The notes below the pieces were generated by a model. That model worked only from the letters and a program-made list of their open reading frames with translations. It had not been told where the DNA came from and made no database searches. From an uncultured Clostridia bacterium (lineage in GTDB: Bacteria; Bacillota; Clostridia; TANB77; CAG-508): a stretch of 64,000 nucleotides of DNA. The translations under genes were made by a program, and so were the position numbers. The stretch lies in NCBI GenBank assembly GCA_947625685.1, contig CANQPK010000028.1:7806-71805 (forward strand), written 5' to 3'. Shown here in pieces: positions 53,342 to 53,810 of this stretch (position 1 is the stretch's first letter; every line of letters begins with the position of its first letter).

Positions 53342-53370
53342 TTGACTTTTTGAAGATAATAATATATAAT
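53342..53370 (+). promoter_or_regulatory. Sigma-A-type promoter for the small hydrophobic peptide mRNA
   Basis: TTGACT, 17 nt, TATAAT. Confidence 0.6.
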
Positions 53371-53434
53371 ATGCAAAGAGAATGAGCAAAGCAGGATGTG
53401 GCGTGTCGTCTTTACCGAAAGGAGGGCGATGCGT

Positions 53435-53584
53435 ATGCTAGAACAAATATATATTTTCTTCATATACATACTTCTTATTGAACTTGCATTTGTTACTGTA
53501 TTAGTTGTTGCATTATTTGTTACTTTAGTTATAACTTTTAGAAAACTAGACAACAAAAAAAGTACATCTCTGCTTGACCGTTAG
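53435..53584 (+). CDS. Type-I-toxin-like small hydrophobic peptide (49 aa)
   Basis: RBS aaaggaggg 8 nt upstream. Translates to MLEQIYIFFIYILLIELAFVTVLVVALFVTLVITFRKLDNKKSTSLLDR: a TM helix plus a basic tail. Confidence 0.55.
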   Translation: MLEQIYIFFIYILLIELAFVTVLVVALFVTLVITFRKLDNKKSTSLLDR

Positions 53585-53650
53585 AGATGCACTTTTTTAT
53601 TTAAACTACTAAATAACGGCACGCCACATTTCTGTGGTTGCTCATTTTCT
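53555..53650 (-). ncRNA. Candidate antisense sRNA convergent with, and overlapping the 3' end of, the toxin-like mRNA
   Basis: Minus-strand promoter TTGACA, 17 nt, TATAAT (53657-53685). Shared bidirectional terminator gtacatctct...agagatgcac. Confidence 0.5.
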
Positions 53651-53810
53651 ATAATTATTATACTAAAATATATTGTGAATGTCAATTGTTTTCGTATTAA
53701 TTGTATAAGGACAAATTTTATACTCTAAAATATACATCAAATTTTACATCATACTTTCTTTTAGTTCCACATTTATCAGCACTTTCAAAAACTACCCTGT
53801 TGTTACTACC

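Follow-up and report, generated by a model that had tools for sequence, protein, structure and literature searches.

The question raised here is what a 345-bp cassette, with a small intact gene and a promoter convergent on it, does in an uncultured Clostridia bacterium, where it lies at the right end of a serine-recombinase element that is in decay and interrupts feoB. The cassette (positions 53342 to 53685) lies in a 64,000-nt stretch of DNA (CANQPK010000028.1 of assembly GCA_947625685.1, positions 7,806 to 71,805, forward strand), called the window below, and all positions are those of the window. An earlier reading made from the letters alone (the sequence-only reading) had proposed a type I toxin-antitoxin-like module at this place. 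The locus was checked by reading positions 53100 to 53950 together with the open reading frame (ORF) list, a promoter and terminator scan, and a repeat finder. That the cassette encodes a functional toxin/antisense pair now appears likely, and we hold as fairly probable the fuller reading, in which it would be a type I toxin-antitoxin module of an undescribed family, regulated through transcriptional read-through and a long-distance interaction (LDI) joining both ends of the toxin mRNA.

When one genome per species was scanned, 99 stretches turned out to encode a relative of the cassette’s peptide, and 80 loci were retained. The family numbers at least 80 loci, all in metagenome-assembled genomes (MAGs) of uncultured gut Clostridia (sampled in rabbit, human, goat, deer, mouse, and chicken), and also includes “Clostridium sp. 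CAG:343/567.” Counts given below as n/74 refer to the 74 distinct complete cassette copies of alignment A2. The cassette is 342 to 353 bp long across the family, and conservation runs from the sense −35 box to the antisense −35 box, between flanks that are unrelated. Certain genomes have two or three copies; two lie 5.8 kb apart in L002, and L020/L021, L024/L045, and L051/L053 are same-MAG pairs. The host genome is AT-rich (28% GC), so promoter hexamers alone are unsurprising, and promoter-like matches in the region were not enriched overall (19 found vs 16.6 expected). The cassette itself is beyond chance, because it is conserved whole in the 74 complete copies and ends exactly at both −35 boxes. 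Judged from these copies, it is a conserved, autonomous unit.

The near-consensus sense promoter claimed earlier is present at 53342 to 53370 on the plus strand (TTGACT 53342 to 53347, 17-bp spacer, TATAAT 53365 to 53370; 11/12 matches), with a predicted transcript start at about 53377. Across the family its −10 box is TATAAT, TATACT, or TAAAAT in 74/74 copies, and its −35 box is weaker and variable (TTGATT 22, TTGACT 16, TTGTTT 6). The 5′ untranslated region (UTR; about 53377 to 53434) begins with a leader (53377 to 53409, plus strand) made of block A (53377 to 53389, AGAGAAUGAGCAA) and block B (53396 to 53409, AUGUGGCGUGUCGU). The structured 5′ UTR and the ribosome-binding site of the sequence-only reading were likewise found. 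A 12-bp hairpin of −17.3 kcal/mol (53401 to 53433) pairs GCGUGUCGUCUUU with AAGGAGGGCGAUGCG; its 5′ arm overlaps block B, and its 3′ arm consists of the Shine-Dalgarno (SD) sequence (GGAGG, 53421 to 53425, 9 nt ahead of the ATG at 53435) and the SD-AUG spacer, both of which are buried. This anti-SD hairpin is paired in 92.5% of cells over the 74 copies and gave no significant covariation over them, because its SD arm is nearly invariant. An SD-occluded primary transcript and an LDI are hallmarks of type I systems (PMC6733600); the predicted fold of the primary transcript shows the occluded ribosome-binding site, with an opening energy of 15.8 kcal/mol. A terminator-like hairpin readable on both strands (TTCGCATTATTTGCGAA, 53318 to 53334) stands just upstream of the sense −35 box; it was rejected as a part of the module, as similar hairpins occur in a few copies and it is not conserved in the family (median z = 0.06).

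The ORF at 53435 to 53584 (plus strand; stop TAG at 53582 to 53584) encodes the 49-aa peptide MLEQIYIFFIYILLIELAFVTVLVVALFVTLVITFRKLDNKKSTSLLDR, a putative membrane toxin with 29 unnamed relatives in the protein database. The ratio of nonsynonymous to synonymous substitution rates (dN/dS), taken over 36 gap-free codons, is about 0.29 to 0.31, and codon position 2 varies least; the other two reading frames gave either no stop-free pairs or a dN/dS of about 1.7 to 2.0. By these measures the peptide is a real gene product under purifying selection. AlphaFold2 run with the family alignment predicts a single helix over residues 2 to 48 (predicted local distance difference test score, 88.7), in keeping with the hydrophobic one-helix peptide first described. 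The hydrophobic core (19-residue hydropathy windows up to 2.9) is followed by the charged tail RKLDNKKSTSLLDR. E3, Q4, and E16 are invariant in alignment A1, E16 being a glutamate within the hydrophobic span. By sequence and prediction the peptide has the features used to recognize type I toxins (fewer than 60 aa, a hydrophobic transmembrane helix, and a charged C-terminal tail; PMC6563280). Searches against Pfam (E up to 10), NCBIfam (E up to 1), and PADLOC, including all type I toxin models, returned only transmembrane-segment noise. In one subgroup (L044, L050, L059 to L061, L069, and L073) a −2/−1 indel pair re-frames the last ~9 codons (NKKHISASH); the hairpin-arm nucleotides are kept there, and therefore RNA structure outranks the peptide tail at the 3′ end.

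Public gene calls start the gene at ATG 53396, giving a 62-aa frame (MWRVVFTERRAMRM..., 53396 to 53584) that is probably over-extended; this ATG lies inside leader block B without an SD sequence and is not conserved (it is GTG in most copies, and hairpin-loop indels alter the frame). An in-frame 51-aa start (MRM...) sits merely 3 nt from the SD sequence.

On the minus strand, a perfect convergent promoter (53657 to 53685; TTGACA 53685 to 53680, 17-bp spacer, TATAAT 53662 to 53657; 12/12 matches) would drive an antisense RNA of ~96 nt, from ~53650 to ~53555, close to the ~95 nt given earlier. TATAAT and the 17-bp spacer are each found in 74/74 copies, the −35 box is TTGACT or TTGACA in 73/74, and across the family this promoter is stronger than the sense promoter. 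The RNA, a putative antitoxin, is conserved in 74/74 copies and has a predicted fold of −30.5 kcal/mol (z = −4.9). A near-copy of the mRNA leader opens it; this antisense 5′ leader (the minus strand of 53616 to 53650) contains a CCACA-GAAA-UGUGG hairpin (53624 to 53637) of which the CCACA-loop-UGUGG form is invariant, with a loop that is often GNRA on the minus strand. Covariation in the outer stem of that hairpin was not significant. Rfam 15, searched at gathering thresholds and then at E up to 10, gave no relevant family for either RNA; the sole antitoxin model listed was OrzO-P (16 bits, vs a 60-bit gathering score). A minus-strand 34-aa ORF (53685 to 53581) was discarded, its TTG start being the −35 box.

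The two transcription units converge on one hairpin (53555 to 53603), whose core stem (ACAUCUCU/AGAGAUG(C/U)) is invariant in the 74 copies. The hairpin has 16-nt arms (53556 to 53571 and 53583 to 53598; 94% complementary, 11-nt loop) and includes the stop codon plus the last ORF codons. The A-run upstream (A7, 53555 to 53561) is the U7 of the antisense RNA, and a T-run (T6, 53593 to 53598) lies downstream. The U-run on the antisense strand is at least 6 nt long in 71/74 copies; that on the sense strand is at most 3 nt in 38/74 and at least 5 nt in only 12/74. The bidirectional terminator of the sequence-only reading thus holds for this copy and not for the family at large: because the U-run is strong on the antisense strand and often weak on the sense strand, the hairpin is, on this comparison, primarily the antisense terminator, and a good sense terminator only in some copies, this one included; L017, L028, and L043 are examples of copies whose sense U-tract is weak. 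In the mRNA-side loop a YUNR motif occurs in 68/74 copies (22/74 on the other strand), which recalls par, where a U-turn starts the pairing of RNA I with RNA II (PMC7472228). Complementarity between the antisense RNA and the mRNA, as read from the sequence, is perfect over at least 46 nt, and over ~95 nt if the mRNA reads through the hairpin.

Past the hairpin lies a 3′ inverted repeat (53616 to 53650, plus strand) with block B′ (53616 to 53629) complementary to block B of the leader and block A′ (53638 to 53650) complementary to block A, a duplex of −50.3 kcal/mol. The sequence-only reading had noted this complementarity, the resulting near-copy of the leader in the antisense RNA, and the long-range 5′-3′ pairing open to a read-through mRNA; this was its most informative remark. 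The repeat amounts to 25 pairs, with about 90% of cells paired over the 74 copies. These pairs were tested for covariation against 500 shuffles and against controls in which the partner was slid by 1 to 3 columns. Both sides had changed at 18 pairs, vs 12.2 in shuffles, and doubly changed cells numbered 150, vs 53.9 in shuffles (0/500 reached the observed value) and 12 to 32 in the slid controls. Eleven pairs show at least two Watson-Crick types (e.g., columns 57-336, with C-G 36, A-U 25, and U-A 2). The median energy is −41 kcal/mol for cognate leader/repeat duplexes, vs −33 kcal/mol for non-cognate ones, and for 62% of copies the own 3′ repeat is among the top 10% of binders. As far as the alignment tells, the complementarity is maintained by compensatory changes, and the twin leaders pair or at least co-evolve.

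One rival reading accepts a type I module in which the twin leaders never pair intramolecularly. The mRNA would always end at the shared hairpin, the antisense RNA would act through the 46-nt overlap only (loop-loop kissing, then RNase III), and the likeness of the leaders would go back to an old inverted duplication of promoter plus leader, kept by a shared need for 5′ features or by occasional gene conversion. The strong sense terminator of the window copy suits this reading, as does the homology of the leaders across the spacer too (CAGA..UGUGG), which a duplication predicts, and both −10-proximal regions are alike. Against it, leaders differ among subfamilies yet match their own partner, whereas a recognition site shared for a protein or RNase would stay conserved and not covary, and half of the family has a weak sense U-run, with an antisense U-run that is strong throughout. 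One-sided changes in the core, read on the sense strand, are tolerated as G.U in about 130 cells vs A.C in 40, where conversion would yield identical copies; this excess favors pairing inside the sense-strand RNA, although it counts cells, not independent events, and the bias is weak by pair types (merely 16 vs 11). Folding also speaks against it, as RNAalifold and partition-function folding give the helix a probability of at least 0.8 once the 3′ repeat is transcribed. We regard this no-pairing version as unlikely.

In the read-through form of this copy the end-to-end helix has a predicted probability of about 0.99 in block A and of 0.82 in block B. The anti-SD hairpin falls from a probability of 0.78 in the short form to 0.24 in the read-through form, because the end-to-end helix uses nucleotides of its lower stem. 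The SD-AUG region is predicted to be easier to open in the long form in 68/74 copies (4.6 kcal/mol easier). A second trans-pairing site between the 5′ part of the antisense RNA and the 5′ part of the mRNA was sought with RNAduplex, and no consistent site was found (z = −0.37); pairing at the mRNA ribosome site of the kind known from par and SprA1 was no better than in shuffles and was dropped. The leader copy in the antisense RNA has a C that would mismatch the spacer A.

The preferred reading, a type I module with an LDI, would work as follows. The moderately strong sense promoter would produce an mRNA for the 49-aa single-helix membrane peptide (the putative toxin), and the near-consensus convergent promoter the ~96-nt antisense RNA (the putative antitoxin), which would end at the hairpin covering the toxin stop codon. 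Part of the sense transcription may read through that hairpin, as the weak sense terminator of most family members suggests, to give a full-length mRNA of ~275 nt whose ends would be joined by an LDI as in the hok and aapA mRNAs. Such an mRNA would be end-protected and, because the helix uses nucleotides of the lower anti-SD stem, somewhat easier to translate, so that low-level translation could occur. The antisense RNA, which matches the last ~95 nt of this mRNA in full complementarity and has the same leader as the mRNA, would invade the helix from the hairpin loops and displace the mRNA 5′ end, which would refold into the SD-blocking hairpin, and RNase III would find a substrate in the long duplex left over the stop codon. 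If the locus were lost, the antisense RNA would no longer be made, the stable mRNA would be translated, and retention of the surrounding DNA would be favored, that DNA being here the decaying serine-recombinase element in feoB.

One reading of the mechanism is put forward with less confidence than the module itself, as a possible but rather doubtful proposal. In it the antitoxin would act by molecular mimicry, its leader copy competing with the mRNA 5′ end for the mRNA 3′ end, and strand displacement would switch the mRNA from an end-paired, stable, and translatable form to an SD-locked, 5′-exposed, and RNase III-sensitive one. By analogy with hok and aapA, the polarity could also be the opposite, with the helix marking an inert mRNA reservoir (PMC6733600).

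A divergent sister family of 39-aa peptides (MVETALITVNYLLFFGLVIVTIINVALIFALAILLSKQQ, MVETAL...SKQQ, and relatives) accounts for 14 database clusters, with loci at L035 (9590 to 9930) and L083 to L087 (gene at about 4001 to 4120). It has the same twin-leader architecture and a hairpin after the stop codon; the peptide and the hairpin differ. Its leaders differ too (e.g., AGUAAGUA, GGAAAUAGAGU, and GAAAGUGAGUA), and each is matched by its own 3′ repeat. The two families probably form a superfamily of twin-leader architecture. L035 holds both, about 3.7 kb apart.

Decay of the cassette was surveyed in 81 copies, and all signals are intact in 69 of the 74 complete ones. Lesions on the toxin side with the antisense gene kept were found in 9 to 10 copies: the start codon is lost in L011, the SD sequence is weakened in L060, L063 and L076 are frameshifted, and in L018, L046, L064, L072, and L080 the 5′ part is gone and the antisense gene retained. 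Only L062 is without the antisense side, and its toxin −10 box is mutated to TCTAAT; L024 combines an intact toxin with a single substitution in the antisense −35 box (TTTACT). This asymmetry, in which toxin signals are lost and the antisense gene is kept, fits what a toxin-antitoxin module predicts. Taken together, the conserved peptide, the antisense promoter, the SD sequestration, and the asymmetric decay give the type I proposal comparative support, to which the multiple copies, the varied contexts, and the recurrent serine-recombinase association add. The window itself contains an orphan remnant of a second module at 56042 to 56173 (plus strand), between a CNNM/CBS gene and the next gene, which retains the last ~12 toxin codons together with the shared hairpin, the 3′ repeat, and the hexamers of the antisense promoter; that promoter has a spacer of 7 bp instead of 17 (a 10-bp deletion) and is probably dead.

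The same observations bear on a second rival, in which a small membrane protein that is not toxic is regulated by a cis-antisense RNA and causes no addiction; it could, for example, serve a transporter such as FeoB as an accessory subunit or a regulator. Transporters are known to be modulated by small membrane proteins (review, PMC10730256), some copies adjoin feoB (8 Gate-domain neighbors among 141), and most copies sit among housekeeping genes. Most loci, on the other hand, have no feoB nearby: the 141 flanking ORFs span 163 Pfam families, among which FeoB, serine recombinase, AbiEii-type ATPase, and phage-integrase genes are slightly overrepresented, and the association with feoB is accounted for by a recombinase element that targets feoB. 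The cassette moves as a unit with both promoters, its decay spares the antisense gene, its antisense promoter is of consensus strength in every copy, and its investment in holding the mRNA untranslated is extreme. A non-toxic role is, on balance, quite improbable.

Least credible, to the point of being very improbable, is a miniature inverted-repeat transposable element (MITE) whose terminal inverted repeats would be the promoter-plus-leader arms and whose ORF would be incidental, a reading invited by the inverted symmetry of the ends (TTGAyTTTT ... AAAAGTCAA), the varied genomic contexts, and the several copies in some genomes and countered by the absence of a target-site duplication (shared flank substring 3.23 nt, vs 3.39 nt in controls), the mere 1 to 3 copies per genome, the purifying selection on the ORF, arms that coincide with functional promoter hexamers at an exact 17-bp spacing, and a divergence of 10 to 40% between species instead of near-identity.

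Several points weigh against the type I reading with read-through and LDI, in addition to the limit on the G.U count given above. With six U, this copy has a good sense terminator and may therefore see little read-through. The folding model gives a moderate gain in SD accessibility: opening the SD-AUG region would cost 15.8 kcal/mol in the short form and 10.7 kcal/mol in the long form, which is still closed, a loosening and not an opening, and forcing the long helix leaves the SD core paired with UCCU. The LDI of hok and aapA silences the mRNA until its 3′ end is trimmed, whereas the helix of the cassette is predicted to act the opposite way, which makes the direction of the switch uncertain. 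Neighboring genes are mostly ordinary housekeeping genes, and no copy was found in phage and plasmid collections (BLASTN of the cassette) or in IMG/VR (peptide-pattern scan); because of these neighbors and the lack of phage, plasmid, or viral-contig copies, a role in stabilizing mobile elements would not be general. The hosts of the cassette are uncultured, and the support comes from sequence comparison.

T1TAdb holds 24 type I toxin-antitoxin families (PMC8594479). Among known systems the layout of the cassette would work most like par (Fst/RNA II of Enterococcus faecalis pAD1; Fst/Ldr), yet it departs from that family in two defining features. Like the cassette, par has convergent promoters and one shared hairpin terminator (PMC7472228), which in the cassette is bidirectional in this copy and has an often weak sense U-tract in the family. 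Both have complementary terminator loops able to start the interaction (compare the YUNR motif in the mRNA loop of 68/74 cassette copies), an SD-sequestering 5′ stem-loop, a toxin-mRNA 5′ end held in a helix, and repeats at the 5′ ends of both RNAs (PMC7472228). The par repeats (DRa and DRb) are direct, which makes the 5′ regions complementary, whereas those of the cassette are inverted, which makes the RNA 5′ ends copies of each other. Unlike in par, the 5′-end helix of the cassette is made with sequence past the terminator, and the ORF overlaps the terminator. Fst-type toxins have PXXXG(C) and a conserved Trp; the cassette peptide is without P, G, C, and W, and no Fst/Ldr model in Pfam or NCBIfam matched it.

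A covariation-supported 5′-3′ helix of the full-length toxin mRNA is likewise found in hok/sok (plasmid R1) and aapA/IsoA (Helicobacter) (PMC6733600), a likeness that depends on the proposed sense read-through. In these systems too, the end-to-end helix, being more stable, replaces a local hairpin that has formed earlier (PMC6733600). They are Gram-negative, with an antisense RNA that overlaps the 5′ part or the ORF, whereas the antisense RNA of the cassette is on the 3′ side and, unlike theirs, complementary to the 3′ partner of the helix. The Hok and AapA peptides show no homology to the cassette peptide (no Pfam or NCBIfam match).

txpA/RatA and bsrG/SR4 of Bacillus subtilis, the former located in the skin element, have longer overlaps and separate terminators. 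The sequence-only reading had likened the cassette to these two, and its convergent 3′ overlap does correspond: they too are Gram-positive and convergent, with a 3′-overlapping antisense RNA that covers the ORF end. According to the literature they occur in prophage-like or excisable elements. They also have the SD sequence in a helix (PMC3834814, PMC8594479). Less apt is the comparison of the overlap itself; unlike in these systems, a hairpin-terminated cassette mRNA would overlap its antisense RNA in the shared hairpin alone (~46 nt), a layout nearer to par/Fst-RNA II. No description of txpA/RatA or bsrG/SR4 includes twin leaders and an end-to-end helix, and neither Rfam 15 (E up to 10) nor the toxin models gave homology to TxpA/RatA or BsrG/SR4.

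In the Clostridia, essentially the type I systems of Clostridioides difficile alone have been characterized (PMC6563280). These (CD2517.1-RCd8, CD0956.2-RCd10, and others) likewise have convergent overlapping toxin and antisense genes, and their toxins of 50 to 53 aa are, like the cassette peptide, hydrophobic in the N-terminal part and charged in the C-terminal tail (PMC6563280, PMC7699646). The modules of C. difficile associate with prophages and mobile elements and help to maintain them (PMC6563280, PMC7699646), unlike cassette copies, which are absent from the phage records and viral contigs searched. No relation between the peptides was seen through the family libraries, a search that included no direct peptide comparison; the cassette tail is short (RKLDNKK...), and the C. 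difficile tails are lysine-rich. The C. difficile modules are not reported to have twin leaders. In SprA1/SprA1AS of Staphylococcus aureus the antisense RNA is also cis-encoded at the 3′ side, and its non-overlapping 5′ domain is functionally important, the interaction being noted to fall outside the overlap (PMC8594479). That domain acts in trans and has complementarity to the toxin ribosome-binding region, whereas the 5′ domain of the cassette antisense RNA is a copy of the mRNA leader with no detectable complementarity to the ribosome-binding region.

The element that carries the cassette (49835 to 53822) is a 3,976-bp (3.98-kb) insertion in feoB, which spans 48577 to 54658, and it is flanked by a 12-bp direct repeat (ATGTGCATGGGA, 49835 to 49846 and 53811 to 53822) consisting of duplicated MCMG codons. 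The intact FeoB of L050 aligns to 48601 to 49846 with one frameshift and resumes at 53808 with two more. The cargo comprises a degraded large serine recombinase (49829 to 51219, minus strand), two small membrane proteins (52134 to 53056, minus strand), and the module, which lies about 125 bp inside the right repeat, at the right end of the element as first proposed. The recombinase is frameshifted and without its N-terminal catalytic part; because both feoB, with its three frameshifts, and the recombinase have decayed, the insertion is fixed. The two membrane proteins (150 and 152 aa) have no confident family (weak DUF3139) and are conserved only in the closest relatives, L001 and L003.

Related recombinase elements that target feoB occur in other species (L001, L047, L061, L069, and L073), and L044, from another species, is an empty site for the L047 element (about 3.4 kb; feoB at about 325 to 5700). 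The module lies inside the element in L061, L069, and L073 and just past the feoB stop codon in L044, L047, and L050, and a related recombinase is found about 2 kb from it in L005 to L007 and L082. Over these loci, the link of the module to excisable elements is recurrent, not universal. In L060 an intact feoB precedes a second feoB C-terminal fragment that is partial. Beside one module copy, positions 8250 to 11071 of L082 (a HEPN_AbiU2 gene, an MmeI-like fragment, and an IS3-family transposase) look like a defense or mobile-element island. Elsewhere in the window, a tetrahydrofolate riboswitch (Rfam RF01831, 62 bits) at 44756 to 44853 (minus strand) precedes the minus-strand ORF 44161 to 44712.

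Read as a type I module, the cassette offers an explanation for an intact small gene that persists within a decaying element. Its architecture would join a par-like shared terminator with a hok/aapA-like end-to-end helix, features so far seen apart, and add a new twist, an antitoxin that copies the leader of the toxin mRNA. Mimicry with strand displacement, if true, would be a principle of regulation so far undescribed among type I systems, and the covariation gives a testable prediction of how antisense binding at the 3′ end could control a ribosome site 200 nt away. The 345-bp unit could serve as a counter-selection or stabilization cassette in low-GC anaerobes. For the organisms themselves, the cassette would add a toxin-antitoxin family in about 100 species-level genomes of uncultured gut Clostridia and, if the reading is true, a superfamily with at least two peptide families that has spread through these bacteria.

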